From contig PSRQ01000032.1 of the NCBI GenBank assembly GCA_003176165.1, positions 1 to 42,926 of the forward strand: a DNA stretch of 42,926 bases. Direction: 5' to 3'. Below are positions 6,875-36,957 of this stretch, piece after piece (positions within the stretch are counted from its first letter, which is position 1; every line of letters begins with the position of its first letter). The stretch is from Candidatus Cerribacteria bacterium 'Amazon FNV 2010 28 9'. Its GTDB lineage: Bacteria; Patescibacteriota; Microgenomatia; UBA1400; UBA12028. A model generated the notes under the pieces. It was given only the letters and a program-made list of their open reading frames with translations. It did not search any database and was not told where the DNA came from. Made by a program: the position numbers and the translations under genes.

Positions 6875-6925
6875 AATATCCAATAACCAATCCGTCAGCT
6901 GACGGATCAATATTCAATGAATAAT
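6875..6925. repeat. AAT-N4 heptamer array containing a perfect 18-bp palindrome
   Basis: AATATCC AATAACC AAT...AATATTC AATGAAT, with ATCCGTCAGCTGACGGAT at 6890-6907. Confidence 0.7.
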
Positions 6926-7271
6926 GAAAGCCTCGGAGAAATCCGGGGCTTTTTTGGTTGGTTATCTTGCATTTGCCACCGAGGAAGATAGTGGACAGAT
7001 TTCTCTCATTGAGGAGGTTACAGCACATCAAGCGCGAGTAGCAATGGAACAGGAATTCCTTAAGCAAAGAAATTTATTTATTGCTGAAATGAAAAAACAA
7101 TACTCAAGCTTGTCTCTAGAAGCTATGCAAAAAGAATTGGATAAAACTTTAGAAGAAATTAATGAGATTGAAGAGGGAAGAGAGCCATACAACGACAGCC
7201 CCTTTCTTGTTGCAAGAGTATTTCAGGAACTCATTGCAGAAAACAATACACATCTAGCTGATTCGAAGTAA
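6924..7271 (+). CDS. Hypothetical acidic helical protein (true start probably downstream of the terminator)
   Basis: Open frame with coiled-coil-like composition. The annotated 5' end overlaps the rplY terminator. Confidence 0.5.
   Translation: MKASEKSGAFLVGYLAFATEEDSGQISLIEEVTAHQARVAMEQEFLKQRNLFIAEMKKQYSSLSLEAMQKELDKTLEEINEIEEGREPYNDSPFLVARVFQELIAENNTHLADSK
6927..6955 (+). terminator. Intrinsic terminator after rplY
   Basis: AAAGCCTCGGA-GAAA-TCCGGGGCTTT hairpin followed by a T-run. Confidence 0.8.
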
Positions 7272-7285
7272 TAATCTTCTAACGC

Positions 7286-7310
7286 CGGAGCAATGTTGTA
7301 CGTTGCTCCG
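7286..7310. terminator. Hairpin between convergent genes
   Basis: CGGAGCAATG-TTGTA-CGTTGCTCCG. Confidence 0.5.
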
Positions 7311-7347
7311 CATAGTTCCTTGCAAAAAATCGTTACTGTTCAGAGGC

Positions 7348-7821
7348 TTATTTTCCTACTTCCTGAAGAGCGTTTTTGGTGATGGGGCTGTTGGGATCGA
7401 TTTGTTGAAGTTGCGCTGCGATTTGTTGTACTTCGTCGGTATTTCCCAATTCGTACTCGAGTTTCATTTTTTGGATGAGTACATCTCGTGCTGTTGGGTG
7501 GGCCGACAAAATAGTATCAAGTGCTGCGATTTCCGTTTTAATATGGTCTCTTGCTGTAGTTTGCAATGTGTATTGTGTTTGAAATGATGCGAATGTTGTC
7601 GCATAGATCGTACTGCCAATACCCAACCAGATCAAAACCACTACTCCGATCAGAACGACAAGAAATGAGATGCGTCGTGCAACAGGAGTACAAATCACGC
7701 GCAACAAAGACACGGTCCATATGAATACAAACGAGATTTTCTGAAGCGGGGAAAGCCCCTCGCTTTTTTCAACAGGTGAAGTGTCGCGGGTTATTGATGG
7801 TGAAGTTTTACGTTTGGCCAT
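7348..7821 (-). CDS. Membrane-anchored protein with a TPR-like C-terminus
   Basis: Likely start MAKRKTSPS overlapping the valS end. Hydrophobic helices followed by HPTARDVL...LQQIDPNS. Confidence 0.6.
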   Translation of the reverse strand: MAKRKTSPSITRDTSPVEKSEGLSPLQKISFVFIWTVSLLRVICTPVARRISFLVVLIGVVVLIWLGIGSTIYATTFASFQTQYTLQTTARDHIKTEIAALDTILSAHPTARDVLIQKMKLEYELGNTDEVQQIAAQLQQIDPNSPITKNALQEVGK

Positions 7822-10151
7822 GAAATAGTGATGAGTAATTGCTCTGTTTCTAGAATACCAGCTGCACTCCATTCTTGCCAAATTGCTTCGGTTACAAATG
7901 GCATGACTGGATGGAGAAGTTTCAGACAAGTTGAGAAGACATGGATGAGAACTGCCAACACAACTTCCTTATCTTCCCGCCCCTTTGTTGACTCCAGGTA
8001 GTCACTCGCTACTCGATTCCAAATAAAATCGTAGAGATTCTGCGCATAATCGGAAAAGCGGAAGTGTTCAAGATTGGAGGTGGAGGTTTCGATGAGCGTG
8101 TTGAGTTCGTTCAAGATTTGTTGATCCTCAGGAAGAAGAGGTAAGAGGTAAGAGGTAAGAGGTAAGGAATTTTCCTTCAACTTTTTTCTTAACTCGTAAC
8201 TCTTATCTCTTATCTCTTCGTTTTGTGATAACAAAACGATAAAACGGGCGATATTCCATAGCTTGTTTGCGAAGTTGCGATAGCCTTTTACTTTGTTCTC
8301 AGAAAGTGCGATTGGATTACCGGGTGCACTCCCAGCAATTAACGCTATTCTGAGCGCGTCAGCACCGTATTTTTCGGTGAGATCGATAGGATTGATGACA
8401 TTGCCTTTACTCTTGCTCATTTTGGCACCTTTTTCGTCCGTCACCATGGAGTGCAAGTACACCGTTTCAAACGGTACGGTGTTTGTGCGATACAAACTCA
8501 ACATGATCATGCGTGCGACCCAAAAGAAAAGAATGTCCCACATCGTATCAAGTACTTGTGTGGGGAAGAAGCGTTTGAAATCAGCAGAGTCTGGAAACCC
8601 AAGTGTCGTGAGTGGCCACTGGCCTGATGAAAACCACGTATCGAACGTATCAGTTTCTGGAAGATAGTCATCTCCTGGGCATTCGTTGCTGACGCGATAT
8701 ACAGCATCGACAGGTGCTCGCAGTGTTTGAAGACCCGCTCGGATGGTGTTCAATTCATACTGATCAAGAAGATCGGCAACACGTCCAATCACTCGTTCGT
8801 GATTCTCGTCCAAAAATGTTACTTCCAAATGAGGATTTTCATTGATGCTGTACCACACCGGGATGCGAATACCCCACACAATCTGGCGTGAGATCGGCCA
8901 GTCACGAATATTTTCCAACCACTGATAGTATTGTGTTTCAAATCGAGAAGGAACAAATGTCACGTCTTTATTTTTAGCGGCGGCAATGCCTTTTTGCGCC
9001 AGTGGTTTCATCTTCACAAACCAGTTGGGCATGACCATAGGCTCGATGTCACCACCGGTTTTGTAATCAACAGTCACGTTGTGTGTATATGTTTCATCGA
9101 CTTTCACAATCGTTCCGTCTGCACTCATATCTGCTGCGACAAGTTTGCGCACTTGCGCAACCTTTTTCCCATGATACTTCTGTACTCGCTCTGTTTGTGT
9201 GGGGGAATTTGGTGAAAATGCAGATAGATCAATCTTTCCAAAAAAGTCGATGAGCGGGCGGACGCGCAAGTTATGTTTTCTCCCAAGTGCGAAATCATTG
9301 GCATCGTGGGCGGGTGTGACTTTCATGACACCCGTGCCAAACTCCATGTCGATCGAGTCATCCCAGATGATTCGCATCTGTTGTGATCCAAGGGGACCGT
9401 TGAAGATCACTTCAGTCGTATCTTTCCAATCGTTGTAACGCCCGTCATTGGGGTTGATTGCAATGGCTTCGTCATAGAAAATGGTTTCGGGGCGCACGGT
9501 GGCGACGACCAAGTCGTGTGTATGTGATCCTTTGTCCGCGATATTGATGTAGTAGAGTGGGTCAATGCGTTCGACGTGCATCACTTCGAGCTCGGAAAAT
9601 GTGGTGCCATTTTTGGGTGAGTAGTTGACGATGTAGTTGTCGCGATAAATAAGGCCGTCATCGATCATGTGCTGAAATGTGTCGTACACGACCTTAATCA
9701 CTTTTTCATCGAGCATGAATGTGGCGCGTGACCAATCACATGAGAAGCCGAGCTGCTTCAACTGGTTAAAAATTGTGCCTGAGTTATCTTGCACGAATTG
9801 ATAAATGTCGTTGTACAAGGTTTGTCGGTCAAACTGAAACCGTGATTTACCTGCTTTACTCAAGTGTTTCTCGTACACGTACTGCGTCTCAAAGCCTGCG
9901 TGGTCTGTCCCGGGAATCCAGACTGTCGGATCTCCCATCATGCGATGCCAACGGATGAGAATGTCCTCAATCACAAACATCGCATGCCCGGCGTGTAGGG
10001 AAGCGTTCGCATTGGGCGGAGGAAGCAAAATTGTGAATGGCCTCTTACTCGAGTTAACGTTTTTTTGCGTGTCAGGATTAAACGCTCCGGATTCTTCCCA
10101 GAGTTTATAGATGTTTGCTTCGTGGTTTTTGTGATTGTAGGTCGAGTCCAT
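7791..10151 (-). CDS. valS: Valine--tRNA ligase (786 aa, no C-terminal coiled coil)
   Basis: PPPNANASLHAGH, PGTDHAG, DWPISRQIVWG, DTWFSS, DILFFWVARM and KMSKS motifs. Confidence 0.96.
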   Translation of the reverse strand: MDSTYNHKNHEANIYKLWEESGAFNPDTQKNVNSSKRPFTILLPPPNANASLHAGHAMFVIEDILIRWHRMMGDPTVWIPGTDHAGFETQYVYEKHLSKAGKSRFQFDRQTLYNDIYQFVQDNSGTIFNQLKQLGFSCDWSRATFMLDEKVIKVVYDTFQHMIDDGLIYRDNYIVNYSPKNGTTFSELEVMHVERIDPLYYINIADKGSHTHDLVVATVRPETIFYDEAIAINPNDGRYNDWKDTTEVIFNGPLGSQQMRIIWDDSIDMEFGTGVMKVTPAHDANDFALGRKHNLRVRPLIDFFGKIDLSAFSPNSPTQTERVQKYHGKKVAQVRKLVAADMSADGTIVKVDETYTHNVTVDYKTGGDIEPMVMPNWFVKMKPLAQKGIAAAKNKDVTFVPSRFETQYYQWLENIRDWPISRQIVWGIRIPVWYSINENPHLEVTFLDENHERVIGRVADLLDQYELNTIRAGLQTLRAPVDAVYRVSNECPGDDYLPETDTFDTWFSSGQWPLTTLGFPDSADFKRFFPTQVLDTMWDILFFWVARMIMLSLYRTNTVPFETVYLHSMVTDEKGAKMSKSKGNVINPIDLTEKYGADALRIALIAGSAPGNPIALSENKVKGYRNFANKLWNIARFIVLLSQNEEIRDKSYELRKKLKENSLPLTSYLLPLLPEDQQILNELNTLIETSTSNLEHFRFSDYAQNLYDFIWNRVASDYLESTKGREDKEVVLAVLIHVFSTCLKLLHPVMPFVTEAIWQEWSAAGILETEQLLITISWPNVKLHHQ
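8136..8218. repeat. Inverted heptamer arrays inside valS
   Basis: (AAGAGGT)4 at 8136-8163 and an opposite-orientation TC(T/G)TA(A/T)C x4 at 8187-8214. Confidence 0.85.
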
Positions 10152-10157
10152 AAATAG

Positions 10158-10188
10158 AGCGTTTTAGGGTTTAGCGGTTAGCGTTTAG
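10158..10188. repeat. Heptamer array upstream of valS
   Basis: Minus strand reads CTAAACG CTAACCG CTAAACC CTAAAAC. Confidence 0.7.
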
Positions 10189-10397
10189 TGACGAATTGGT
10201 GGTCGTTGTCCAACGGCAAAATTTACAACATACTCTTTTTTTAACCCATCAAGCCTCGAATCGTTTATGTAGGAATTATAGTTGCTTCCTTCCCTAACTG
10301 CATTTGCGAGGTTAGTTAAAGCTTCAATTTGTGGCTCCGATGCCTCAGGAAAAGCTATCTTAGCTGATTCTTTTGCAGATGGTCTTTCATTTTGCAT
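10185..10397 (-). CDS. Hypothetical protein (70 aa)
   Basis: ORF with AAGGAGA upstream of the ATG. Confidence 0.6.
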   Translation of the reverse strand: MQNERPSAKESAKIAFPEASEPQIEALTNLANAVREGSNYNSYINDSRLDGLKKEYVVNFAVGQRPPIRH

Positions 10398-10408
10398 ACT
10401 TTCTCCTT

Positions 10409-10654
10409 TTAATTGTTTTTGTACTGTTCTGGATCTGTTTTGGATTGTTCTTCTACCCCTGAATAAAATGTGATATGCGTCGTCTTTTCTCCGCGTGCCC
10501 CTGGCTCATATCCCAATTCATCTGGCTTTTGACCAAACTTGAGTCGACCATCATCTAAGCGTTTTTTTGCTTCATCGAGAGCACTTTGTAGCATAGGTGG
10601 AACATCGCTATCCTTGCCCAAGGGCCCTTTTCCATAAAAAGTGAACTCAGTCAT
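10409..10654 (-). CDS. Hypothetical protein (81 aa)
   Basis: ORF with AAGGA upstream, tandem with the previous ORF. Confidence 0.6.
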   Translation of the reverse strand: MTEFTFYGKGPLGKDSDVPPMLQSALDEAKKRLDDGRLKFGQKPDELGYEPGARGEKTTHITFYSGVEEQSKTDPEQYKNN

Positions 10655-10745
10655 GACATTTCCTTTCGCTTTTCTTGTATTTTAACATCTTGATGTGTGT
10701 GTACGCCAACGGTAGGATACGAGGTAAAGAGAAAAAGGAGCGTCT

Positions 10746-11507: not shown

Positions 11508-11513
11508 TTCTTT

Positions 11514-11789
11514 TCAACCTGACCTTTTTTGTTGAGAGCTCAGTTTATTAAGAGTTTCAATGATAAATCCATCTAGTACTTCATCACTTTTTCCAGATTC
11601 AATACGGTGACTTATTATGTCAACCAATCTCTGACGATCATTGGGAGACAGTGATGCTGTTTGTTGCTTTATATACTTTTCAAAAGTTGCCATGTTTTCA
11701 TTTCCAGCTGTTGGTCTCGTTTCTCCTTTTGCAGTCATGCCCGTGGCATATATATTGTCTACGAGGAGTCGAAGGTCTTTTTCTTCCAT
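11514..11789 (-). CDS. Hypothetical protein (91 aa)
   Basis: ORF with AAGGA upstream. Confidence 0.55.
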   Translation of the reverse strand: MEEKDLRLLVDNIYATGMTAKGETRPTAGNENMATFEKYIKQQTASLSPNDRQRLVDIISHRIESGKSDEVLDGFIIETLNKLSSQQKRSG

Positions 11790-11831
11790 AGAATTCCTTT
11801 CTACTTTATTTTGTACTATATAAAAACTTTC

Positions 11832-14691: not shown

Positions 14692-14698
14692 AGAATGT

Positions 14699-20216: not shown

Positions 20217-21086
20217 GTGAAATACACAAAACTTCAGTGCGACATTCTTTCCCATCTTTGCTATGCCGCAGTTTTTGATGCAGGGCTGTCAATGGCCGAG
20301 TTGGGTGGAAATAGAGAAGTACTTCAATTTCTCGTTGAACAAAAGAAAATTATTCACAAAAACAGTTTATATGCCTTGCCAACCGTCAACCTCGCCACAT
20401 ACGACAAGCGACGAGTGATCAGTCAACGGAAATTGAAAGCAATTCAACAAGATATTGGTTTGATTGGATGGATTCCAACAATCTTAGGAATTGCTCTGAC
20501 AGGCAGTGTAGCTGCCAAAAACGCTTCCAAAGATGATGACATCGATCTCTTTATCGTGACAAGAAAAAACACGCTGTGGATGACTCGTATGTTGGTTGAG
20601 CTTCTTGTCTTTCTCAACGGGAAATTACGCCGTCCTAATTCAATACATGTGAACGATTTGTGGTGCTTAAACATGTGGGTGGATAGTGATCATCTCGAAA
20701 TGAAAAAACATGATCTCTACATCGCTCATGAGATTGTGCAAGCTCAGTGGATTGTCGATAAAACAGGGATTGAACAGAGATTTATAGAAGAAAACAAGTG
20801 GGTGAAAAAATTCATGATGGGAGAAGTATCAAAGAAATTTTCAATCCGTCAGCTAACGGACAATTTACAATTTTCAAAACTTACACTTCTTATCTCTTAT
20901 TTCTTATCTCTTATTTCTCGTATTCTTGATTGGTTTTGTTATCGTGCGCAACTTGCATACATGCGTTCGCGATTAACAACGGAATATGTGACACGGCATA
21001 CAGCTTTTTTTCACCCACATGATGTGCGGGCTGATGTGTTGAAAAAATATGAGAGAATAATGTCCGAGATAAGAAATAGGAAATAA
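20217..21086 (+). CDS. Pol-beta-like nucleotidyltransferase domain protein
   Basis: ALTGSVAA...DDDIDLFIV (GS...DxD); GTG start 6 nt after TGtTAAGAT. Confidence 0.75.
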   Translation: MKYTKLQCDILSHLCYAAVFDAGLSMAELGGNREVLQFLVEQKKIIHKNSLYALPTVNLATYDKRRVISQRKLKAIQQDIGLIGWIPTILGIALTGSVAAKNASKDDDIDLFIVTRKNTLWMTRMLVELLVFLNGKLRRPNSIHVNDLWCLNMWVDSDHLEMKKHDLYIAHEIVQAQWIVDKTGIEQRFIEENKWVKKFMMGEVSKKFSIRQLTDNLQFSKLTLLISYFLSLISRILDWFCYRAQLAYMRSRLTTEYVTRHTAFFHPHDVRADVLKKYERIMSEIRNRK

Positions 21087-21095
21087 GAGATACGA
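20836..21095. repeat. Compound heptamer arrays with an embedded palindrome in and after the nucleotidyltransferase gene
   Basis: AATTTTC-AAT[CCGTCAGCTAACGGAC]-AATTTAC-AATTTTC at 20836-20875; (TCTTATY)4 at 20888-20915; inverse array GAGATAA GAAATAG GAAATAA GAGATAC at 21066-21093. Confidence 0.8.
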
Positions 21096-26502: not shown

Positions 26503-26511
26503 AGCCAGTAC

Positions 26512-26602
26512 AATTTACAATTTACGAATTTTCAATTTTCAAATAATTGATCATTGTGACATTGAATATTCAATGAAAATTGGAAATTGAGAATTGAAAA
26601 TT
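26512..26602. repeat. Inverted AATTT(A/T)C heptamer arrays between sufB and sufD
   Basis: AATTTAC AATTTAC GAATTTTC AATTTTC ... GAAAATT GGAAATT GAGAATT GAAAATT. Confidence 0.85.
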
Positions 26603-26610
26603 ATCGTTTT

Positions 26611-27096
26611 ATGACCACATTTACTGTTAAAAAAGAAAACGAGCATATTACATTGGATCACTCGGATGAATACCGTATTGAGATCGTGGCTGAAGGGGTG
26701 CAGGTCAAGATCGTCGGGGCATTTGCAACTCATGAAAAAGAGCAGATTGATATTCATTTGACGATTGTGCATAAGGCCGCGCATACGCGAGCCAACACAA
26801 TTCTGAAGGGCGCGGCGTTTGACAACAGTTCGATTCGTTTTTTTGGTCGCATTATCATTGAACCAAATTGTCCGGACACACAATCCTTCTTGGAAGAAAG
26901 AGTGTTGGTGCTTTCAGACAAAGCCAAGGCAGAAACTGTACCGGAACTTGAGATCAAAACTGACGATGTGAAGTGCAGTCATGCAGCAAGTATCAGTCGT
27001 ATCCCCCAAGAACATCTCTTTTATCTCCAGAGTCGCGGGATTCCAAAAGCAAAGGCTGAGGAAATGATTGTGGAGGGTTTTTTGAAACTTGAATAG
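26611..27096 (+). CDS. sufD: Short SufD-like protein (C-terminal SufBD domain only)
   Basis: PELEIKTDDVKCSHAAS and LFYLQSRGI...AEEMIVEGF motifs. Confidence 0.88.
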   Translation: MTTFTVKKENEHITLDHSDEYRIEIVAEGVQVKIVGAFATHEKEQIDIHLTIVHKAAHTRANTILKGAAFDNSSIRFFGRIIIEPNCPDTQSFLEERVLVLSDKAKAETVPELEIKTDDVKCSHAASISRIPQEHLFYLQSRGIPKAKAEEMIVEGFLKLE

Positions 27097-28144
27097 TGAT
27101 ACTATTATTTCCATGGGAAATATTGCTGAGTTTGCCGAACCTCCTTTGCCGATCTATTCTTCTCAAGATCTTGAACGTCGATATCAACGGATAGGAACGT
27201 TGTCAATCTCTGGGGGATTAGGAACCGTAGAAAAAGCTTTGGATATAGAATTGCAACGATTTGTGGCAGTAAAACACCCAACAATAGATCCCTCCTATGA
27301 CGCAAGTGCGATGCAGCGTGAGGCGAAACAGCATGCGAGGGTTGATTCCATCCCTGGTATTGCCAAAATTTATGCATATGGATTAGAAGAAAATGTCCCA
27401 TTCATCGTCATGGAGTGGATTGATGCCCCAACAATCGCGGATCGATTAAAAACAGGAAGCCCCCTTTCTCTTATCGAATCAGTCATGCTCGCGTCAGATA
27501 TGTCTTGGTTGGCTGAAGAGATGGCAAAGCGAGGTGTCATTCATGCTGATTGGAACACTAAGAATGTGTTTTGGTCAAAAGAAAATAGAATCCGACTGGT
27601 CGATTTTGGTATTGCTGTCGGTGTGATCGATCGGCAACAGGGAGCTGCTGGAACGCTGTCGTTTGTTGCTCCTGAGGTTCTCGATCAACGGACTCCAAAC
27701 TTATTTTCCGAACAATGGAGTATTGCTGCTGTTGTCTATGCGAGCCTGGTAGGCAGAGGGCCATTTGATCAACTTGAATCTTCAAGCCTTCCTCTTTTAC
27801 GCGGGAAAATATCAGGAAAAAGAACACGAGATGCAATTATAGAAGGAAAGTACACTCCCTTAGCTAACAATGAGGAGTTTGTTCAACGTCTTCGTAGGAT
27901 AGACGAACCACTCTCGCAGGCACGTGAGCGTGCGCGAGCAATTGATGCAGTTTTTACACAAGTATTTTCTCAAGATTCCAGAGATCGTTTTCCAACCATA
28001 CAAGCTTTTGTACAAGCGCTACAAGATGCATGTGGATTTACCGATGAAGAAATACGAACGCCACGTTTTCCTCTCGAAGAGTCAGATGATCGTGTTCATC
28101 TTGCGCACATAGTCAAAACGTTTTTTCCAAATCAGCGTGAATAA
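27089..28144 (+). CDS. Hanks-type Ser/Thr protein kinase
   Basis: GGLGTV, VAVK, REA, IVMEW, IHADWNTKNV, DFG and GTLSFVAPE motifs. Start uncertain. Confidence 0.88.
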   Translation: MNSDTIISMGNIAEFAEPPLPIYSSQDLERRYQRIGTLSISGGLGTVEKALDIELQRFVAVKHPTIDPSYDASAMQREAKQHARVDSIPGIAKIYAYGLEENVPFIVMEWIDAPTIADRLKTGSPLSLIESVMLASDMSWLAEEMAKRGVIHADWNTKNVFWSKENRIRLVDFGIAVGVIDRQQGAAGTLSFVAPEVLDQRTPNLFSEQWSIAAVVYASLVGRGPFDQLESSSLPLLRGKISGKRTRDAIIEGKYTPLANNEEFVQRLRRIDEPLSQARERARAIDAVFTQVFSQDSRDRFPTIQAFVQALQDACGFTDEEIRTPRFPLEESDDRVHLAHIVKTFFPNQRE

Positions 28145-28147
28145 CTA

Positions 28148-28921
28148 TTAATTTCTCTTTTTCTTTGACTGTTTTTGTGAATTGCTGTTGGGTGCTATGA
28201 AATCAGTGCGAGCAATATTACTTTCGATGCCTGTAATTTCGAGATTATGGTAGACTGTGTGATCCTTACATTCTTTCTTTGTGAATGTTTCAACGGCTGA
28301 CGTGATAACCACGCTTCCTCCATAATCGAGATGTAGTTTTCTGTTTGCAGCAAGTGGAATATCACGATATTCCACAAGTTCGTGATTTTCATCTGAAATA
28401 CGAACATGTGCCACATATTTTGCTTTCGCATCTGCTTCTGGGACCAACACCCCGAATAGATAAGAGAGAAGTCGGGCTTGCTCTGTCGTTATAACGATTA
28501 GCTCTTCTTCACCTTGAATGACTCTAGTGTGTAAGAGAATGCTCGGTTGTGCATCCTCACGAATATGAAGTTCATCGAAAAAGTAAGAAATAAAGGAAGG
28601 CAAAAGGTTTTCCTGGTTTTGAGGTGCAAAAATAATGTCACCAACTGTGGAGTCAATTCCTTCCCAAAATTCATCAGAGTTTTGCTCTTCTATTGCCGCT
28701 TCTTCCCACTTATTGAGTGTATCTATCGCACAGATGAGCGGAACGCAGAAAAAGGGGTCGTATGATTTTAAAATGTCACGAAAAAGATCATCGTTTGCAA
28801 ACGAATCATCGAAGGGAACGGAGTCTTTTGATTTGGGAATGTAGTCGCCTTCAAATTCTGATCGATGATCTGGTTGAAGTGTTTCGGCATCTGCCATAGC
28901 GGCCTTTCTTTTTTCTTTCAT
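28148..28921 (-). CDS. Hypothetical acidic protein
   Basis: 257-aa ORF convergent with the kinase; alternative start at 28897. Confidence 0.65.
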   Translation of the reverse strand: MKEKRKAAMADAETLQPDHRSEFEGDYIPKSKDSVPFDDSFANDDLFRDILKSYDPFFCVPLICAIDTLNKWEEAAIEEQNSDEFWEGIDSTVGDIIFAPQNQENLLPSFISYFFDELHIREDAQPSILLHTRVIQGEEELIVITTEQARLLSYLFGVLVPEADAKAKYVAHVRISDENHELVEYRDIPLAANRKLHLDYGGSVVITSAVETFTKKECKDHTVYHNLEITGIESNIARTDFIAPNSNSQKQSKKKRN

Positions 28922-28930
28922 CCTACACCA

Positions 28931-28960
28931 AAAAAAGAGCCGATGGGAAACCCATCGGCT
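28931..28960 (-). terminator. Intrinsic terminator
   Basis: Minus strand AGCCGATGGG-TTT-CCCATCGGCT-CTTTTTT. Confidence 0.8.
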
Positions 28961-28965
28961 TGTTG

Positions 28966-29295
28966 TTACTCGTTATATGACCATGGCCCACCAGGAACCG
29001 GTGGTTTGAAAGCAGAATGATCAGCGAGCTTAAAGTGCTGTTGCAATGGATGTCTTTTGGCAAATATCCCTGTGGGTGTTTCGTAACACCACAGATATCC
29101 ATCGTTGTCCATTCTCACTGGCCTTTTCCACTCAAGTTGCAGTCCTATCTCTTGTCCTACTTTGTAGTGTAAAAAAGACCGAATAGTAGTGAGTGCGAGT
29201 TCGCGTAGGATGGCATCAATTCCCTTGGGAACGTAACTCTCCAGTTTTTCACGTTCTTCATCAAGCGCGGAACGTAACGCTGGCCATGACGTCAT
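28966..29295 (-). CDS. Hypothetical protein
   Basis: MTSWPALRSAL... with a terminator directly downstream. Confidence 0.55.
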   Translation of the reverse strand: MTSWPALRSALDEEREKLESYVPKGIDAILRELALTTIRSFLHYKVGQEIGLQLEWKRPVRMDNDGYLWCYETPTGIFAKRHPLQQHFKLADHSAFKPPVPGGPWSYNE

Positions 29296-29409
29296 TCTTG
29301 ACTTCTTTTCTCTATCAATACATCCAACGGTGTGTTGAGTATGTACTGTTCGAACGATGTGTTTATTATACACCAGAGAAAGAATTGAGAATTTTGGTAC
29401 AATATACAT

Positions 29410-30672
29410 ATGTTTGATCCGCACATGCTTCAACAAGACTTTCCCATTCTTTCCACGCCGTTAAAAAGTGGGAAAAAGTTGATTTATCTAGACAACGCCG
29501 CCACAAGCCAAAAACCTCAAGTAGTGATCGATGCTATTACTCAGTATTACAAGCGTGACAATGCCAATGTCCATCGTGGTATTCATGAACTTGGTGATCG
29601 ATCTACTCGGAGTTGGCATGAAGCCAGAAAGACAATTGCGACTTTTTTTGGAGCCACTCCAGAGGAATTAGTCATGACGCGCAATACAACTGAAGGGTTA
29701 AACATGGTGGCATATAGTTATGGTGAAGCATGTGTGAGAGAAGGGGACCTCATTCTCACGACCGTCATGGATCATCATAGTAATCAAGTCCCATGGCAGG
29801 AATTGGCACGACGCAAAAAAGCACGACTAGAGATGATCCCAGTAACTAGGGAAGGGATGTTGGATTTGGAATGGCTAGAACGCAAGGTAAAAGTTGAAGG
29901 TGAAAAGGTAAAGATCGTTGCTTTTCCACACGTGTCCAATACCTTGGGGACGCTCAATCCAGTTGAGAAGATTGTTCGCCTTGTTCGTGCGTTTACTAAA
30001 GCGGTTATCGCCCTCGACGCGGCTCAATCGGCTCCGCATTTGCTCATCAATTTTGACAGACTCGGTGTTGATTTCATGGCTGTCTCGGCTCACAAGATGC
30101 TTGGGCCAATGGGAATTGGAGCATTGTTTATTCGCCAATCACTTCTTGAAAACGTCTCACCTTGGTTATTTGGAGGAGGAATGATTGGTGAAGTGACGAA
30201 GGAACGAGCAACATTTGCTGATGATCTTGAAGATCGGTTTACGGCAGGGACACCGGATGTGGCGGGAGCTGTTGGGTGGGCAGCAGCCTGTGAGTATCTC
30301 TCCAAGTTGGATATGAAAAAAGTTGAGCAACATGATAAAGAATTAGTCAACTATACGTTGGAAAAATTACAAGCAATTCCCGAAGTTGAGATTGTTGGAC
30401 CCGTGGAAAGAGTTAAGAGGTATGAGGTAAGAGGTAAGCGTTGTGGTTCCGTGGCATTTTTGTACAAGGGAGTCCACGCCCACGATGTTGCGCAAGTGCT
30501 CGACAGCGAAGGTGTTGCGGTACGCAGTGGGCATCACTGTACGATGCCACTTCATGCTGCGTTTGGATGGGCGGCGACCACACGGGTTAGCTTCAATGTG
30601 TATACGAGTAAAGAAGATATTGATGTATTTGTAAGAGCATTGGGAAAAGTGAAAGAGGTATTTGAGAAATAA
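29410..30672 (+). CDS. sufS: Cysteine desulfurase SufS
   Basis: YLDNAATSQKP, NVHRG, SAHKMLGP (PLP Lys) and RSGHHC motifs. Confidence 0.97.
   Translation: MFDPHMLQQDFPILSTPLKSGKKLIYLDNAATSQKPQVVIDAITQYYKRDNANVHRGIHELGDRSTRSWHEARKTIATFFGATPEELVMTRNTTEGLNMVAYSYGEACVREGDLILTTVMDHHSNQVPWQELARRKKARLEMIPVTREGMLDLEWLERKVKVEGEKVKIVAFPHVSNTLGTLNPVEKIVRLVRAFTKAVIALDAAQSAPHLLINFDRLGVDFMAVSAHKMLGPMGIGALFIRQSLLENVSPWLFGGGMIGEVTKERATFADDLEDRFTAGTPDVAGAVGWAAACEYLSKLDMKKVEQHDKELVNYTLEKLQAIPEVEIVGPVERVKRYEVRGKRCGSVAFLYKGVHAHDVAQVLDSEGVAVRSGHHCTMPLHAAFGWAATTRVSFNVYTSKEDIDVFVRALGKVKEVFEK
30408..30438 (+). repeat. AAGAGGT-type heptamer array inside sufS
   Basis: AAGAGTT AAGAGGT ATGAGGT AAGAGGT AAG. Confidence 0.7.
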
Positions 30673-30695
30673 TGTACAGTTTTATGGATAAAAAA

Positions 30696-30737: not shown

Positions 30738-30749
30738 AAGACAGGAAAT

Positions 30750-31358: not shown

Positions 31359-31367
31359 AGTTTTTCC

Positions 31368-32347: not shown

Positions 32348-32404
32348 AGAGTTATCAACTTTCCCTATGTCTTCTGAGAATGCTTGTTATTATAATGACG
32401 ACTT

Positions 32405-33121: not shown

Positions 33122-33147
33122 AAGTTTTCAATATAGAGAGGACATGT

Positions 33148-33447
33148 ATGAGTGATTCAACAATTCAGCAATCAACCGTCCAGTCGTCTGATATTTCTGT
33201 AGCGCCTGAGGACAAAGCAAAAGGGCCAGGGAAATATCGAGTAAAAGTCAATCGCCCCAAATGTATTGGAGCGGGATCGTGTGTAGCGATTGCTCCCAAA
33301 GTTTTTGGGTTGGATGACAAACAATTGGCGTTTGTCATTTCTGAAGATGAGCTTGATGATATTAAATTATTGGCGGCGCAGAGTTGTCCAACCGCCGCGA
33401 TCATTGTGGAAGATATTGAAACAGGGACGCAAGTATGGCCTCAATAA
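33148..33447 (+). CDS. Single-cluster ferredoxin, predicted [3Fe-4S]
   Basis: CIGAGSC...AAQSCP (CxxAxxC...CP). Confidence 0.88.
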   Translation: MSDSTIQQSTVQSSDISVAPEDKAKGPGKYRVKVNRPKCIGAGSCVAIAPKVFGLDDKQLAFVISEDELDDIKLLAAQSCPTAAIIVEDIETGTQVWPQ

Positions 33448-33501
33448 GAGAGGTATAAACCTTCTTTTGCCTTGTGTTCCCACAGGAGGTATACTAACCA
33501 C

Positions 33502-34134
33502 ATGAAAAATCTTCCGCTTCTTCTTGGATCATTGGCTGTGACGATCATTGCCGTCGTTGGGGTGGCAGTATTTTTTACCAAACAAGCAAATGCTCCTGTG
33601 AAACCAGTAGATGATACGCTCCTTATTTCTCATGCAAAACACAGCGAAGGACCAACTGACGCGAAAGCCACACTGGTCGAATTTTCTGATTTTCAGTGTC
33701 CAGCTTGTGGGGCGGCAGAGCCATATGTTGAACAAATCTTGCAAAAATATCAAGGAAAACTGCGTTTTGTGTATCGTCAATTTCCACTAACGAGCATTCA
33801 TCACAATGCGGCGGCTGCGGCTCGTGTGGCAGAAGCAGCTGATAAACAAGGGAAGTTTTGGCAGATGCATGACCTTCTCTTCCAAAAACAATCTGAGTGG
33901 GCTGATGTGCTGGACCCAACACCCAATTTCTTGAGTTATGCCCAAGTAGTGGGTTTGAATGTTGATCAATTTAAGAAAGATGTTGCCGATAATGTTACCG
34001 ATGCACAAGTCACGATCGATGAAGGCGATGGGAATGCGTTGGGAGTGAATGCCACACCCACGTTCTATGTGAACGGTGTGCAGACGGATTTGACCGCACT
34101 TCAAACGTCTATCGATACCGCACTTGCAAAATAG
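33502..34134 (+). CDS. DsbA/BdbD-like thiol-disulfide oxidoreductase
   Basis: N-terminal anchor, EFSDFQCPAC and cis-Pro ATPTF. Confidence 0.9.
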   Translation: MKNLPLLLGSLAVTIIAVVGVAVFFTKQANAPVKPVDDTLLISHAKHSEGPTDAKATLVEFSDFQCPACGAAEPYVEQILQKYQGKLRFVYRQFPLTSIHHNAAAAARVAEAADKQGKFWQMHDLLFQKQSEWADVLDPTPNFLSYAQVVGLNVDQFKKDVADNVTDAQVTIDEGDGNALGVNATPTFYVNGVQTDLTALQTSIDTALAK

Positions 34135-34144
34135 GAGGAACCCT

Positions 34145-34645
34145 ATGCGTAAAAATGCCTTTGCCATCTTTGTCTTGGTTGGAATAGTGCTTTTGGGTTG
34201 TATTTTGTTCACACACTGGTGGAAAGAACATACTCTGGCACCTTCATCCTCTTTGCAAGCTGCTACACCGACCCCCGTGGCCACATTTTCTCCCGTTGTT
34301 ACCTCGATGTTAGGACGATTGCAACCACTGAAAGGTGATGTTCAAACACAAAGTCTTTTACCTCAAAATGGAAATACGCTTTCTGGGGCGGTGCGATATT
34401 CTTTGGTCGGTGACGTGGTCTCGTTTACTATTCTGGTCGATCCGACGGATGAACCATTAAATGCTTGGTTGGTTTCCAGTGAAGGACAAGTAAACTTAGG
34501 GACACTCCTGCAAAGCAAAGGTGGTTTACTCATCAATGGTCAAGCCAAACAATCTGTTTTCCCGATTCAACTGTATGTGACCAAACAAGGGAAAAAGATT
34601 GATGAGACCGGTGGTGCAGTTCTGCAAGGGAGTATTTCTCTGTAG
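34145..34645 (+). CDS. Hypothetical membrane-anchored protein
   Basis: AGGAGG RBS and an N-terminal TM helix. Confidence 0.65.
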   Translation: MRKNAFAIFVLVGIVLLGCILFTHWWKEHTLAPSSSLQAATPTPVATFSPVVTSMLGRLQPLKGDVQTQSLLPQNGNTLSGAVRYSLVGDVVSFTILVDPTDEPLNAWLVSSEGQVNLGTLLQSKGGLLINGQAKQSVFPIQLYVTKQGKKIDETGGAVLQGSISL

Positions 34646-34743
34646 AGATCACTCTTGACTTGCTTCTCAAGACTCGCTATAGTGAAGCTCACGTACGCCT
34701 GGTACCAGATGGACAGGCAACTAGTACACAGGAGGAGGAGCCA

Positions 34744-34944
34744 ATGGCATACTCATACAAAAATTCAAAAGGACAAACTTATTACCTTCACACCCGTGAT
34801 GTGGTGTTGAAGAATGGTCGCAAGCAAACCATTTTCTTCTTTGCTCGCGATGTCCGTGCCGGTTCGATGGATGATGTTCCAGCTGGATACAAAGTCGTCG
34901 AAACCAAGCGCACCGGTATGCCAGTACTCAAGAAGGCAGCCTAA
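34744..34944 (+). CDS. Small basic protein (66 aa)
   Basis: MAYSYKNSKGQTYYLH...QTIFFF...TGMPVLKK, with a strong GGAGGAGG RBS and a downstream terminator. Confidence 0.75.
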   Translation: MAYSYKNSKGQTYYLHTRDVVLKNGRKQTIFFFARDVRAGSMDDVPAGYKVVETKRTGMPVLKKAA

Positions 34945-34967
34945 TTGTTTGTTGAAATGAAAACGAT

Positions 34968-34994
34968 AAAAGCCCTGGGATCCCAGGGCTTTTT
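34968..34994 (+). terminator. Palindromic intrinsic terminator
   Basis: AAAAGCCCTGGGATCCCAGGGCTTTTT. Confidence 0.75.
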
Positions 34995-35016
34995 GGGAGT
35001 GGGGTACAATACGTAT

Positions 35017-35343
35017 ATGGAATTGACCTCGGACATGGTGTATCAAGAACTGAAAACAGTGCTCGATCCAGAATTGAATATCAATATCGTGGATTTAGGA
35101 CTTGTGTATGATGTAATTGTTAGACCTTCTCTAGAGGAGAAACGCAGCAATGTGAAGATTCTTATGACCTTGACCACTCCAGGATGTCCTTTAGGAACCA
35201 CTATTATCACGATGGTTCGGGATGCTTTGGCCGTTTTTCCAGATCTGAATCCTGAGCGAGATGTGAACGTAGAAATTGTGTTTGATCCTCCGTGGACGAG
35301 CGATATGATGAGTGAAGAAGCGAAGGCGGCGCTGGGATTTTAG
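35017..35343 (+). CDS. sufT: SufT/MIP18 (DUF59) Fe-S maturation protein
   Basis: DPELNINIVDLGLVY, MTLTTPGCP and FDPPW motifs. Confidence 0.9.
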   Translation: MELTSDMVYQELKTVLDPELNINIVDLGLVYDVIVRPSLEEKRSNVKILMTLTTPGCPLGTTIITMVRDALAVFPDLNPERDVNVEIVFDPPWTSDMMSEEAKAALGF

Positions 35344-35369
35344 TTCCGTGATATAATAAATCCTCTGGA

Positions 35370-35444
35370 GCACCCATAGTTTAATGGATAGAATAGCGGT
35401 TTGCGGAACCGTTGATCCAAGTTCGATTCTTGGTGGGTGCACCA
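35370..35444 (+). tRNA. tRNA-Arg(GCG), CCA encoded
   Basis: Acceptor GCACCCA/TGGGTGC, anticodon arm GCGGT-TTGCGGA-ACCGT, T arm CCAAG-TTCGATT-CTTGG. TGaTATAAT lies upstream. Confidence 0.93.
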
Positions 35445-35513
35445 CGGTATTGACTTCGTAAGGGGAGGTGGCTGCGCGGCGTACGCAGCAGTTTCGAATC
35501 CTGTATCGAGTGC

Positions 35514-35602
35514 GGAGGGGTGCCTCGAGTGGTTTATGGGCCAGGTCTCGAAAACCTCGGGGAGGCTTCGCTTCCACATGGGTTCGAATCCCATCCCCTC
35601 CG
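35514..35602 (+). tRNA. tRNA-Ser(CGA)
   Basis: Acceptor GGAGGGG/CCCCTCC, loop CTCGAAA, long variable arm, ATGGG-TTCGAAT-CCCAT, G discriminator. Confidence 0.9.
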
Positions 35603-35806
35603 CTCTGGTACAGGACGAGTCTTCCGGCAAGTCACCGATGAGTTGACCTGCCCCATCCCGCCAAGCGGGACTGTACCCTTCGCTCGCTTGAGAAACGAGA
35701 AGGTTATTCTAGAGCTTTCTATCCATTCTCCCATGTAATCATTACTTTTTCTTGATACTTCTTACGTTCTTTTCTTTCATACTTTCTTTTCAGGAAAGGA
35801 AATTGT

Positions 35807-36115
35807 ATGGCCCTTCAAGAAGAAGATATGCTTGTGAATATTCGTATGAATGGTACAGAAATACTGGAAGGGGAACAGGAGAAAGCCCTACAAACCCTCC
35901 GAAAAGCTGCTTGGTTTATCGAAACAACCCAACAGCACATTGAGAAAGATCTGTATGCAAAAGTGACAGAGGGTGAGCGTACTCTTTTTCAAACAATGAT
36001 TGAAGAGTTAACCACCCATGCTCTAGAGCTTGGTATTGACAACGGACGCATTGTTGAAGTAATCCAAGCAGGGATGAGATATGCGGAAATGGAATGGGTT
36101 CTGCGCCATGTATGA
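35807..36115 (+). CDS. Hypothetical protein
   Basis: AAGGA RBS; 102-aa helical ORF. Confidence 0.6.
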   Translation: MALQEEDMLVNIRMNGTEILEGEQEKALQTLRKAAWFIETTQQHIEKDLYAKVTEGERTLFQTMIEELTTHALELGIDNGRIVEVIQAGMRYAEMEWVLRHV

Positions 36116-36162
36116 AGTGTTTTCTGCTGTACGTTCACTCCAACTTGCGCTAGAGTATACAT

Positions 36163-36735
36163 ATGAGTGATTCTGCATCCCTACCTCCTGTAGCAAATCA
36201 ACCCTCCTCTCAATCAAACCAGCATGATCAGCATGAGGAAAAGATGTTGGTATCTTGGCAGGCAGCATCGCGCCCATTCAAAAAACGTGATCGTGAGTTT
36301 TATACGACAATCGCTATCATTGTGTTCTTGTTGACTCTCATTCTCTTTTTTGCAGGGCAATTCTTGCTGATTGCGGTGTTGATTTCGCTCGCATTTGTCA
36401 CCTACGTGCTTAATTCTGTGCCTCCAGAGCCTGTTCATAACGCCGTGACGACGTTTGGTATTCGGACAGGGGATCAGTTGTTTTATTGGCAGGAATTGGG
36501 TCGTTTTTGGTTTGGAGAGCAGTATAAGTCGCAATTATTGTATATTGAAACAGCACGTGCATTTCCAGCACAGTTAATTCTCATCATTGATGGAGTGGAT
36601 CAAGAAAACTTAAAAAAAATTCTTCTTAAGTACACAGTCCATGAAAAACCAAAAGCGACGTGGTTGGATAATGCCGCTAACTGGATGCAAGAAAAGTTTC
36701 CCTTAGAAAAAGAAGAAAAACCTTCACAAAAATAA
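36163..36735 (+). CDS. Two-TM membrane protein of unknown function
   Basis: WQAASRPFKKRDREFY, two TM helices and YWQELGRFWF. Confidence 0.75.
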   Translation: MSDSASLPPVANQPSSQSNQHDQHEEKMLVSWQAASRPFKKRDREFYTTIAIIVFLLTLILFFAGQFLLIAVLISLAFVTYVLNSVPPEPVHNAVTTFGIRTGDQLFYWQELGRFWFGEQYKSQLLYIETARAFPAQLILIIDGVDQENLKKILLKYTVHEKPKATWLDNAANWMQEKFPLEKEEKPSQK

Positions 36736-36780
36736 CTTTTCTTCGTTTTGTTCTCCCGATGATACAATACTTCTGAATTT

Positions 36781-36852
36781 GCTCCCGTAGTCTAATGGAT
36801 AGAACATTGGCCTCCGAAGCTGAAAATGTGCGTTCGATTCGCACCGGGAGCA
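36781..36852 (+). tRNA. tRNA-Arg(CCG)
   Basis: Acceptor GCTCCCG/CGGGAGC, loop CTCCGAA, GTGCG-TTCGATT-CGCAC. Confidence 0.92.
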
Positions 36853-36864
36853 CTGTTCGACTTG

Positions 36865-36957
36865 CCCTTCTGTAGTCCTGAGCTTGTCGAAGAACGAAGG
36901 AGGGTTCCCACCAAAGACACCGAAGAAATTTTCAATTTACGAATTTACAATTTTCAA
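36865..36957. repeat. Palindromic element plus AATTT(A/T)C heptamer array after tRNA-Arg(CCG)
   Basis: CCCTTCTGTAGT[CCTGAGCTTGTCGAAGA]ACGAAGGAGGG, then AATTTTC AATTTAC GAATTTAC AATTTTC. Confidence 0.65.

Follow-up and report, generated by a model that had tools for sequence, protein, structure and literature searches.

STRR and other long heptanucleotide repeats are known from Calothrix PCC 7601, from Nostoc PCC 7120, with the unit GGGGA(C/T)T, and from Xanthomonas, with the unit GGGAATC. In REPIN-RAYT and MITE systems, a gene is flanked by an inverted repeat that is also dispersed without the gene, as non-autonomous hairpin copies. The Rickettsia palindromic elements are selfish palindromes inserted in frame in essential genes and translated as an extra surface segment. 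Heptanucleotide repeats are reported to be the most over-represented long simple repeats in bacteria, for which the consulted sections of two surveys give no tested cause (PMC4692102, PMC4679880); the idea of slippage is credited there to Mrazek et al. 2007. In X. campestris, 70 convergent inverted pairs of heptamer arrays were reported, the repeats being mostly intergenic and, in the same sections, of unexplained function (PMC4692102). No link between heptanucleotide repeats and a gene is drawn in those parts of either survey (PMC4692102, PMC4679880). The 23S intervening sequence of Coxiella burnetii, located in helix 45, contains heptameric stem repeats, the first of which is the site of RNase III cleavage, and the Coxiella S23p homologue forms a pentameric toroid; ORF-bearing 23S intervening sequences are named also for Leptospira and Brucella (PMC4990558, sections consulted). 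The S23p/IVP four-helix-bundle family has no known function according to the excerpts used here (PMC11270868, PMC4990558), and the Coxiella intervening sequence is the only published connection between PF05635/S23p and heptamer repeats that the literature yielded (PMC4990558, likewise in excerpt). PF05635 is also said to resemble Avd (PMC10053308).

Here, we describe heptamer arrays in a 42,926-nt stretch of DNA from a Candidatus Cerribacteria bacterium (the window, meaning the whole stretch that was analysed) and in the corresponding genome (1.06 Mb, 95.3% complete). Our main reading, to which we assign a probability of roughly 0.6, is that the arrays are selfish elements akin to the 23S rRNA intervening sequences, residing in protein operons and accompanied by gene-less and one-arm derivatives. 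The full form would be a promoter-less four-helix-bundle gene (S23p/IVP, PF05635/TIGR02436) between two inverted heptamer arms. The window would then hold gene-less derivatives, namely two hairpin elements, one split arm pair, and solitary arms of the cassette unit families.

A sequence-only reading of the window had proposed a dispersed system of period-7 arrays, and their excess is real. In the window, TRF returned 27 rows, ten of them at period 7, and eight period-7 rows had 3.4-4.7 copies (at 8136, 8187, 20888, 21069, 26509, 26574, 30408, and 36927). An autocorrelation scan requiring at least 17 of 21 positions to be equal at lag p found six period-7 loci in the window (8130-8171, 8186-8220, 10161-10190, 20885-20919, 26574-26602, and 30407-30442) and none at periods 4-6 and 8-13. 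Genome-wide, the scan gave 36 loci at period 7 versus two at period 6 and eight at period 8, with 0-3 loci at each remaining period except period 14; five triplet-preserving shuffles gave 0-0.4 loci, and 0 against the 36 at period 7. The TRF arrays with at least four copies were distributed similarly, with 58 at period 7, two at period 6, and seven at period 8. The units are AT-rich, and G-quadruplex formation is not possible. Array lengths peak at 30-32 nt (39 of 129 period-7 rows) and show no monotonic decay, in agreement with the earlier estimate of about four units per array; the arrays are discrete modules of ~30-31 nt, or ~4.4 units of 7 nt. A CRISPR-like array was ruled out by the absence of spacers and by the 7-nt units. 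An assembly artefact is unlikely, since contig X1 (25874-26579) from a public run, which may be the window's own source, spans the first arm and loop of one of the hairpins described below (sufB-sufD) with 0 differences.

Six of the seven loci named by the sequence-only reading hold a period-7 array, and the seventh, at 6875..6925, is mainly a 14-nt palindrome. This small palindromic hairpin, for which no strand is assigned, separates the stop codon of an L25/Ctc gene (6183-6872) from an ORF that starts at 6924. The palindrome, at 6892-6905, forms its core and is joined by two or three weak heptamers; neither TRF nor autocorrelation called period 7 at this locus. The RNA is predicted to fold at -10.5 kcal/mol (z -3.3), and the palindrome has 23 genomic copies at up to two mismatches versus 1.65 in shuffles. 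The heptamer-armed hairpin at 8136..8218 (no strand assigned) is located in frame inside valS (7791-10151, minus strand), which was identified by profile search at 781.5 bits (cut-off 704). It has a 21-nt loop between 4.4 units of AAGAGGT (8136-8166) and an inverted TCTTATC-type arm (8187-8218), and it is inserted in the linker before the anticodon-binding domain, where the Pfam domains stop at residue 612 and resume at 676. Its RNA fold has an energy of -40 kcal/mol on the plus strand (z -6.2) and -27.5 on the mRNA-sense strand (z -4.2). A solitary degenerate array of ~3.5 GTTTAGS-type units (10158..10190, no strand assigned; autocorrelation locus 10161-10190) lies upstream of valS and stops 8 nt from its start codon (10151, minus strand); it had no TRF row at score 30 and is unstructured as RNA (z +0.5).

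The remaining features were all recorded on the plus strand. Within the nucleotidyltransferase-like ORF 20217-21086, AATTTTC/AATTTAC units at 20836..20876 are broken by a copy of the 14-nt palindrome (20846-20859) and fall in a variable linker, after which homology resumes in an alignment with 13 relatives. Next to them, a translated TCTTATC-type array of 4.4 units (20880..20918) has a consensus unit with a stop on the antisense strand only. The GATAAGA-type array at 21043..21092 extends across the 3' end of the same ORF and stops 7 nt short of the gene that follows (start 21100); it is inverted relative to 20885-20918, with 124 nt between the arms and an arm score of 31. The intergenic heptamer-armed hairpin at 26509..26604, between the sufB stop (26502) and a short sufD-like gene (likely start ATG 26611), has a 31-nt loop between an AATTTAC/AATTTTC arm and an inverted GAAAATT arm, with an RNA fold of -21.1 kcal/mol (z -2.3). 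A solitary AAGAGGT-type module (30408..30438) is translated in frame inside sufS (29410-30672, named by profile search), adding ~9 residues to a surface loop. Finally, a solitary 31-nt AATTTWC module (36927..36957; RNA unstructured, z +1.25) lies between tRNA-Arg (36781-36853) and a NUDIX gene (likely start ATG 36979). An Rfam search of the window found tRNAs only. Arrays had been described as often answered by an inverted array, and this holds for the tight hairpins 8136/8187 and 26509/26574 and for the distant arms 20885/21043. It does not hold for the arrays at 10158, 30408, and 36927, which are solitary and fold no better than shuffles, or for the genome at large, where 17 short-loop hairpins were found among 122 arrays and most arrays are solitary. 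This preponderance of solitary arrays counts against the main reading, since neither a hairpin nor an intervening-sequence model requires it.

No PF05635 gene was found inside the window, just as the sequence-only reading had reported, and the association of such arrays with IVP genes that it mentioned for other genomes is seen elsewhere in this genome. A profile search identified four PF05635 genes above the Pfam cut-off (at C51, C23, C4, and C31), and all four PF05635/TIGR02436 genes are bracketed by inverted heptamer arrays of unit families seen in the window. With TIGR02436 (cut-off 24), the scores were 116 and 70 bits, and PDB entry 2GSC was matched at E 1e-21. In these cassettes, the start and stop codons of the PF05635 gene abut the two inverted heptamer arms. 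All four sit in housekeeping surroundings, after dnaB, at nusA-infB, at atpA-atpG, and beside a tRNA, with a TrwB-like gene as a further neighbour; Rfam found one tRNA only and no rRNA at the four loci. Their arms are 30-35 nt long, and their inverted-repeat scores are 54, 47, 48, and 29 against a threshold of 33, the 99th percentile of 1500 control positions. The C51 cassette falls just under this threshold, yet it is visibly paired. Among 55 PF05635 genes of this genome and 16 relatives, 33 exceeded the control percentile, with period 7 in 24 of the 33, and 22 cassettes remained under it. In a sample spanning several phyla, with Nostoc and Calothrix among the genera, 29 of 40 loci passed the inverted-repeat test (period 7 in 22 of the 29), and period-7 arrays flank homologues of the four-helix-bundle gene in both Nostoc linckia and Calothrix membranacea. 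Arm 9-mers were common to 22.6% of cassette pairs at protein identities of at least 55% versus 4.1% of those below 35%, and thus the cassette arms co-vary with the protein.

The four cassettes have the same build as the 23S intervening sequences, in which a promoter-less S23p/PF05635 ORF lies between inverted repeats with a stem of ~28-30 bp. Unlike the latter, they reside in protein operons or beside a tRNA rather than in 23S rRNA helix 25 or 45, and the genome has many gene-less hairpins and solitary arms, some of them translated. Paired arms in transcripts could form a ~30-bp stem and serve as a substrate for RNase III, a gene for which is present in the genome; unlike for the 23S intervening sequences, we infer such cleavage by analogy with Coxiella. 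The C23 protein belongs to the fold family of Avd from diversity-generating retroelements. Unlike Avd, it scores 28.6 bits on the NCBIfam Avd model, below the cut-off of 80, and the genome has no matches to reverse transcriptase (PF00078) and no template/variable repeats that could be seen.

The arrays outside the cassettes are tied to the resident cassettes by sequence. In this genome, 41 of 80 non-cassette arrays contain an 11-mer from the arms of the four resident cassettes, and the other 39 are orphans; this amounts to 10.5 arrays per resident cassette versus 0.58 per foreign cassette. Seven of eight window arrays (10158-10190 left out) have 11-mers from the C23 or C4 cassette: the valS hairpin and the array at 20880..20918 share them with the C23 arms and the sufB-sufD hairpin with C4, and the array at 21043..21092 has none in common with any resident cassette. 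When the sequences were compared by eye, the sufS module matched a C23 arm at 28 of 31 positions, a variant unit included. The C23 arm recurs at up to two mismatches in a gene-less hairpin (C46:18051), and the 31-nt AATTTWC module occurs in 11 genomic copies, 36927..36957 among them, with at most three mismatches and sharp ends. The sufB-sufD hairpin has a paralog at C35:22961-23044, with 89% identity over 84 nt and an identical loop (24/24). The order of unit variants and an irregular 8-nt unit are kept across dispersed copies. Judged from these copies, the modules have been copied as discrete sequences to new sites. In the relatives, 72 arrays were sampled from IVP-positive genomes, of which only 14 match a resident cassette at the 11-mer level, most being orphans, and own-genome matching at k = 11 is weak (15 of 355 own pairs, 4.2%, versus 88 of 3805 foreign pairs, 2.3%).

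The suggestion of a non-autonomous element fits these observations. As in REPIN-RAYT and MITE systems, the inverted arms of the cassette gene recur without the gene. Unlike in those systems, the arms have an internal period and vary from cassette to cassette, the protein they accompany is a four-helix bundle with no known catalytic activity, and no HUH/Y1 transposase was found (PF01797, 0 matches in the 95.3% complete genome); no other transposase was identified. Neither the 11 module copies nor the atpA-atpG cassette showed an evident direct repeat at their borders that would indicate a target-site duplication, the nearest relatives being at ~70% amino-acid identity, at which borders are not definable to the base. 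Spread would require a trans-acting factor, either the four-helix-bundle protein or another nuclease.

The comparison of orthologous sites that the sequence-only reading had suggested revealed that the valS, sufS, and sufB-sufD insertions are missing in relatives. The ~15-17 extra residues of valS in this genome (G000) are found in none of 27 relatives' sequences. The sufS loop is empty in 16 of 17 relatives; the exception, G001, has an independent heptamer hairpin of 23 residues there. The sufB and sufD genes overlap or are at most 6 nt apart in 12 of 17 relatives, and the atpA-atpG spacer is -4 to +6 nt in nine of 19 relatives versus the 430-nt cassette in this genome; G004 and G020 have gene-less heptamer hairpins at this junction. 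The inserted sequences at valS and sufS are unrelated to the local sequence of the orthologues. Since they are missing from orthologous sites of relatives, the arrays are, on this comparison, not fixed ancient sequence. Array distribution is patchy among genera of one family. Arrays were also observed in two genomes with no detected PF05635 gene (G020, four in 40 kb; G007, two), and the IVP-positive genomes G026 and G019 had none among the sampled sequences.

These data bear on the possibility that the arrays are simple-sequence repeats arising in place by replication slippage that favours 7-nt units. Heptanucleotide repeats are reported to be the most abundant class of long simple-sequence repeats in many bacteria, and polymerase slippage has been offered as an explanation (PMC4692102, PMC4679880, sections consulted); the Coxiella intervening sequence varies by one heptamer among strains (PMC4990558, in the part used). 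Among public sequencing runs, the stretch was located in three soil DNA runs, and no RNA run was listed for it. A single low-depth contig from these runs lacks one base of the irregular 8-nt unit at 36941, and three base changes in the loop at 26544-26549 are likewise confined to a single contig. The contigs otherwise show no array or unit gained or lost as a whole, at a depth of only ~2-5, too shallow to bear on polymorphism or expression. However, array lengths, unlike those of slippage contingency repeats, do not follow a decaying distribution. An entire hairpin was duplicated with its loop, and the inserts do not resemble what stands at the orthologous positions. Fixed module length and the conserved order of unit variants at dispersed sites do not fit plain slippage, as the sequence-only reading had argued, and we regard this explanation as very unlikely.

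Many arrays end 0-10 nt from a stop or start codon, including 10158-10190 (valS) and 36927-36957 (NUDIX), and this proximity could also be read as a sign of host-serving signals, that is, of intercistronic RNA hairpins or of repeated binding sites through which the processing, stability, or translation of mRNA is tuned. The paired arms fold well (z -6.2 and -2.3), RNase III is present, and TAACTGA repeats upstream of start codons in Beggiatoaceae were proposed to act in this way (PMC4679880, sections consulted). On the other hand, most relatives have no array at the orthologous junctions, their genes overlapping or abutting there, the distribution within the family is patchy, and 27 arrays are translated deep inside ORFs. 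The folding of 17 hairpins was compared on both strands with a view to G-U asymmetry on the transcribed strand, and the sense strand folded more strongly in six, more weakly in seven, and equally in one, with direction undefined in three. This absence of strand bias provides no support for RNA-level selection or for the RNA-structure signal proposed by the sequence-only reading, and the dedicated mechanism for generating or reading period 7 that it also inferred stays hypothetical; a host-serving role seems quite unlikely. Under the preferred reading of selfish elements, the same positions are those of tolerated insertions. Modules persist where they are least harmful, either precisely at the junction of a stop codon and the start that follows it or stop-free in frame in variable protein loops, as in valS, sufS, and the nucleotidyltransferase-like gene. 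Among the 27 intra-ORF arrays, the consensus unit contains a stop trinucleotide on the sense strand in nine and on the antisense strand in 19 (discordant arrays, 4 versus 14), and in all nine sense-stop arrays the real array departs from the consensus wherever the stop would be in frame. From the Rickettsia palindromic elements, the present modules differ in their much smaller size (31-95 nt), their heptamer composition, and their tie to a specific small gene.

A co-occurrence check across genomes gave a mixed outcome. The genome contains ten small stand-alone GIY-YIG genes and one long ORF of this type, and among 30 related genomes, a small and non-independent sample, array density correlated with the number of IVP genes (rho 0.62) and with the number of small GIY-YIG genes (rho 0.66); the partial correlations were 0.39 for GIY-YIG (p 0.03) and 0.29 for IVP given GIY-YIG (p 0.12). 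The IVP association is therefore present, yet confounded by GIY-YIG, and does not single out IVP at the genome level; the search for HUH genes in the present genome gave 0 matches. It is conceivable that heptamer modules and four-helix-bundle cassettes are both passengers of another enzyme, most plausibly a small GIY-YIG nuclease, and that the gene merely rides between the arms. The slightly better tracking of array density by GIY-YIG number points in this direction, as do G020, which has five GIY-YIG matches and four arrays without a detected IVP gene, and the four-helix-bundle fold, which has no known catalytic activity in the text consulted (PMC11270868). In cis, however, arrays go with IVP genes, whereas no period-7 array lies within 300 nt of any of the ten GIY-YIG genes, and the inverted repeats flanking GIY-YIG genes, where present, are of a different kind (GTCATCC...GGATGAC). 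The correlation also comes from the same 30 non-independent genomes, and we consider a GIY-YIG mover unlikely.

If the arrays are mobile derivatives of intervening-sequence-like cassettes, the period itself may reflect the protein. We speculate, as a doubtful extension, that the four-helix-bundle protein, whose solved homologues are homopentameric rings, reads the arrays, each of its five subunits binding one core 7 nt apart; the ring symmetry would set both the period of 7 and the length of ~31 nt (4 x 7 + ~3), and the unit sequence would drift with the protein lineage. In that case, the missing cause of the bacterial heptanucleotide excess, including the cyanobacterial STRR and the Xanthomonas arrays, would lie in PF05635 cassettes and the gene-less elements derived from them. 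Like STRR, the arrays described here are dispersed tandem heptamers, over-represented relative to other periods. Unlike in STRR, the host belongs to another phylum (Patescibacteria) and is not a heterocystous cyanobacterium, and the units differ, being AT-rich. Apart from the ring model, this genome ties heptanucleotide repeats to the S23p/IVP family in cis, both as arms of a cassette and as free copies, and the elements may help to explain why 7-base repeats are common in bacteria. They have settled in essential operons and, in valS and sufS, even within the reading frame. The annotation of small genomes is affected too, as these insertions displace predicted start codons and give conserved proteins extra low-complexity segments.

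Repeats with a 7-nt period are strongly enriched in the genome to which the window belongs (G000; 1.06 Mb, 65 contigs, 43% G+C, 95.3% complete; the window is contig C19). G000 probably belongs to Patescibacteria, on the indirect evidence of its small size and of the nearest public relatives of one of its genes. Lag autocorrelation, controlled by triplet-preserving shuffles, identified six loci of period 7 in the window, where periods 4-6 and 8-13 gave no locus; genome-wide it identified 36 loci at period 7, two at period 6 and eight at period 8, and shuffled genomes gave 0-0.4 loci. TRF reported 27 rows in the window, 10 of them with period 7 (eight of these with 3.4-4.7 copies), while genome-wide arrays of at least four copies numbered 58 at period 7, two at period 6 and seven at period 8. 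Since period 7 so strongly exceeds periods 6 and 8 and the shuffles, the alternative named by the sequence-only reading, an absence of enrichment, falls away.

The seven loci of that reading are real as a whole. Six carry arrays of tandem 7-nt units, and the one at 6875 is mainly a copy of a 14-nt palindrome, with no array. Two are tight hairpins of inverted arrays: 8136-8218 inside valS (plus strand -40 kcal/mol, z -6.2; mRNA-sense strand -27.5, z -4.2) and 26509-26604 in the spacer that separates sufB from a short sufD-like gene (RNA fold -21.1 kcal/mol, z -2.3). The locus at 20836-21092 is composite, starting with AATTTWC units broken by the 14-nt palindrome; these are followed by an array of TCTTATC type, whose inverted partner lies 124 nt further along. 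The arrays at 10158, 30408 and 36927 are solitary, with folds no better than shuffles. Genome-wide, 17 short-loop hairpins were found among 122 arrays, and the proposed hairpin grammar therefore holds only for a minority. A strand test for RNA-level selection on the hairpins, comparing sense and antisense folds, was null and gave no support to the suggested RNA-structure role. The palindrome itself (CCGTCAGCTGACGG, at most 2 mismatches) has 23 genomic copies against 1.65 in shuffles, two in the window (6892-6905 and 20846-20859) and 21 elsewhere. It forms a constant hairpin tip on stems that vary among copies, including heptamer-array stems on contigs C15 (C15:5113), C33 (C33:3366) and C57 (C57:2494), and looks like a second tiny element inserting into hairpin loops.

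Array lengths peak at 30-32 nt (39 of 129 period-7 rows), a distribution unlike the spread predicted from slippage. The 31-nt module at 36927-36957, found also as the left arm 26512-26542, has 11 copies with at most 3 mismatches, with sharp ends and an irregular 8-nt unit at the identical place. A paralog of the entire sufB-sufD hairpin, with its loop, lies at C35:22961-23044 (89% identity over 84 nt). The length peak, the dispersed sharp-ended copies and the whole-hairpin paralog thus agree with the earlier suggestion that plain slippage is not the source. Passages of PMC4692102 and PMC4679880 already describe heptamer over-representation and the slippage idea, the former with 70 inverted heptamer pairs in one Xanthomonas strain.

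Comparison of orthologous sites at valS, sufS and two gene junctions identified lineage-specific insertions. The nearest comparison genomes belong to other genera (~70% amino-acid identity), and at this distance no target duplication was seen at the 11 module copies or at the atpA-atpG cassette described below; contigs of three soil DNA runs cover the window at a depth too low to reveal polymorphism. At the precise position of the hairpin, the valS product is longer by ~15-17 residues, a segment missing from all 27 relatives' sequences. The sufS product has ~9 extra residues in one loop, in which a relative (G001) carries an independent 23-residue insertion that is itself a heptamer hairpin of a different unit; the remaining 16 relatives have no insertion there. 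At the sufB-sufD junction, occupied by the hairpin in G000, stop and start codons overlap or lie at most 6 nt apart in 12 of 17 relatives. The sufD-like gene (26611-27096) encodes only ~160 residues, the C-terminal core of SufD; this short form is kept in 17 of the 20 relatives searched and is therefore ancestral, not truncated by the hairpin. Three ORFs, a Ser/Thr protein-kinase-domain gene and two unknown-family genes on the other strand, lie between it and sufS (27089-29436), two genes that are 16 nt apart in relative G004; the block is an insertion in the suf operon that is specific to this lineage.

Twenty-seven arrays, a count that includes the 36927 array, which probably precedes the actual start codon and is better left out of the tally, lie deep inside ORFs of at least 150 residues. 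Stop trinucleotides occur in the consensus unit of nine arrays when it is read in sense and of 19 when it is read in antisense (discordant, 4 versus 14), and in all nine arrays with a sense-strand consensus stop the real sequence departs where the in-frame stop would fall. Such stop avoidance is the outcome expected from selection acting on random insertions. In the nucleotidyltransferase-like ORF 20217-21086, the two array sites are the linker and the C-terminal tail. The orthologue in G015 (locus L170) encodes a ~10-residue peptide twice, in these same two places, and the linker of that in G018 (L175) contains a low-complexity segment with a periodic pattern; the two regions seem to have been hit repeatedly in different lineages.

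The sequence-only reading also pointed to similar arrays flanking four-helix-bundle genes in other genomes, with no such gene visible in the window. None is indeed present there, and four genes above the Pfam cut-off for PF05635 (NCBIfam TIGR02436, 'four helix bundle protein') lie elsewhere in the genome; one product matches the solved pentameric protein 2GSC (E 1e-21). Each of the four has inverted short-period arrays on either side, abutting its start and stop codons. One of these cassettes follows dnaB, one separates nusA from infB, one separates atpA from atpG, and one neighbours a tRNA and a TrwB-like gene, with no rRNA at any of the four loci. The atpA-atpG spacer is -4 to +6 nt in nine of 19 relatives, and the gap in G000 is filled exactly by the 430-nt cassette; G004 and G020 carry gene-less heptamer hairpins there (75 and 58 nt). 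In five relatives (G005, G001, G010, G012 and G011; L247-L251) of the same family, this gap is 328-378 nt with a 104-115-residue ORF; these ORFs appear unrelated between genera, except for the G010/G012 pair, and the site seems to be an insertion hot spot, for small genes as well as hairpins.

Two cassettes share unit families with the window, AAGAGGT/TCTTACC on C23 and AATTTAC/AATTTTC on C4. The C23 arm recurs within 2 mismatches in a gene-less hairpin at C46:18051 and, read by eye, equals the sufS array at 28 of 31 positions. Of the 80 non-cassette arrays, 41 have an 11-mer in common with arms of the four resident cassettes and 39 are orphans; sharing amounts to 10.5 arrays per own cassette versus 0.58 per other-genome cassette, and includes seven of the eight window arrays. 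The link to four-helix-bundle genes is thus upheld within this genome. Among 72 arrays sampled in relatives, 11-mer sharing with a resident cassette was seen in only 14.

Bracketing extends to other genomes. Inverted repeats were scored against a threshold of 33, the 99th percentile of 1500 control positions. G000 and 16 relatives have 55 PF05635 genes for which both flanks were available, and 33 of these were above threshold, 24 of them with period 7. Of 40 public-genome loci found with one protein, spanning Parcubacteria, Saccharibacteria, Nitrospirota, Bacteroidota, Nostoc linckia and Calothrix membranacea, 29 were above threshold and 22 of these had period 7. Cassette pairs from different genomes share arm 9-mers in 22.6% of cases at 55% protein identity or more versus 4.1% below 35%; it follows from this covariation that the arms travel jointly with the gene, the arms diverging faster.

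Co-occurrence was assessed in 30 relatives, on 60 fresh regions totalling 1.03 Mb. Rows of period 7 numbered 48 in 588 kb of 16 genomes with a four-helix-bundle (IVP) gene versus seven in 443 kb of 14 genomes without, and period-6 control rows were flat (14 versus 11); at the valS and sufS loci the period-7 counts were 16 in 102 kb versus 0 in 110 kb. G020 is an exception, with four arrays and no PF05635 gene detected. This co-occurrence, strong at first sight, is weakened by the small GIY-YIG genes: array density correlates with GIY-YIG number (rho 0.66) as well as with IVP number (rho 0.62), the two gene numbers correlate with each other (rho 0.71), and the partial correlation of arrays with IVP given GIY-YIG drops to 0.29 (p 0.12) among relatives that are kin and not independent. 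Yet none of the 10 small stand-alone GIY-YIG genes of G000 (81-101 residues; C31:754, C38:741, C61:2154, C23:1117, C31:8918, C63:36123, C46:29749, C9:39, C52:4717, C24:17517) has a period-7 array within 300 nt; several are bracketed by other inverted repeats (GTCATCC...GGATGAC). Searches of G000 for a reverse transcriptase and an HUH transposase found neither. Because the arrays are linked to it in cis, and to no GIY-YIG gene, the evidence points to the four-helix-bundle gene as a candidate agent of copying; a GIY-YIG nuclease or host replication may make the copies instead.

We consider it somewhat probable (roughly 60%) that the arrays are rRNA-intervening-sequence-like elements and their miniature derivatives, residing in protein operons and reading frames. 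Modules of ~31 nt and period 7 bracket the four-helix-bundle gene physically, are dispersed as copies and are inserted lineage-specifically at gene junctions and in permissive protein loops, with reading frames kept open through the arrays. By analogy with established work, the paired arms in a transcript would form a ~30-bp stem, a putative RNase III-type substrate; an RNase III gene is present in G000. RNase III cutting of such stems has been shown for intervening sequences, including the Coxiella element, whose stem likewise has heptamers in tandem, with cleavage at the first repeat (PMC4990558). Unlike rRNA intervening sequences, the G000 cassettes lie in protein operons and beside a tRNA, and none in rRNA. 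Described in PMC11270868 as functionally uncharacterised and as occurring in the rRNA insertions found in candidate-phyla bacteria, the S23p/IVP domain is similar to Avd, a protein of diversity-generating retroelements (PMC10053308); beyond the Coxiella case, no published link of this family to dispersed heptamer arrays was found in the literature. The initial interpretation is supported in part, for non-slippage origin, gene link and non-autonomous copies, but not for a dedicated period-7 mechanism, an RNA role or a general hairpin grammar.

Two further features were observed. The conserved part of the nusA-infB four-helix-bundle gene (C4:6530-6570, L003) lacks an in-frame ATG, a nearby ATG being one base out of frame with a stop after four codons; the gene may be decaying or have an unusual start. 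On the window's minus strand at 38174-38259, ARAGORN predicts a tRNA-Ser with anticodon ACT, which would be unusual in a bacterium, and Rfam confirms a tRNA there.
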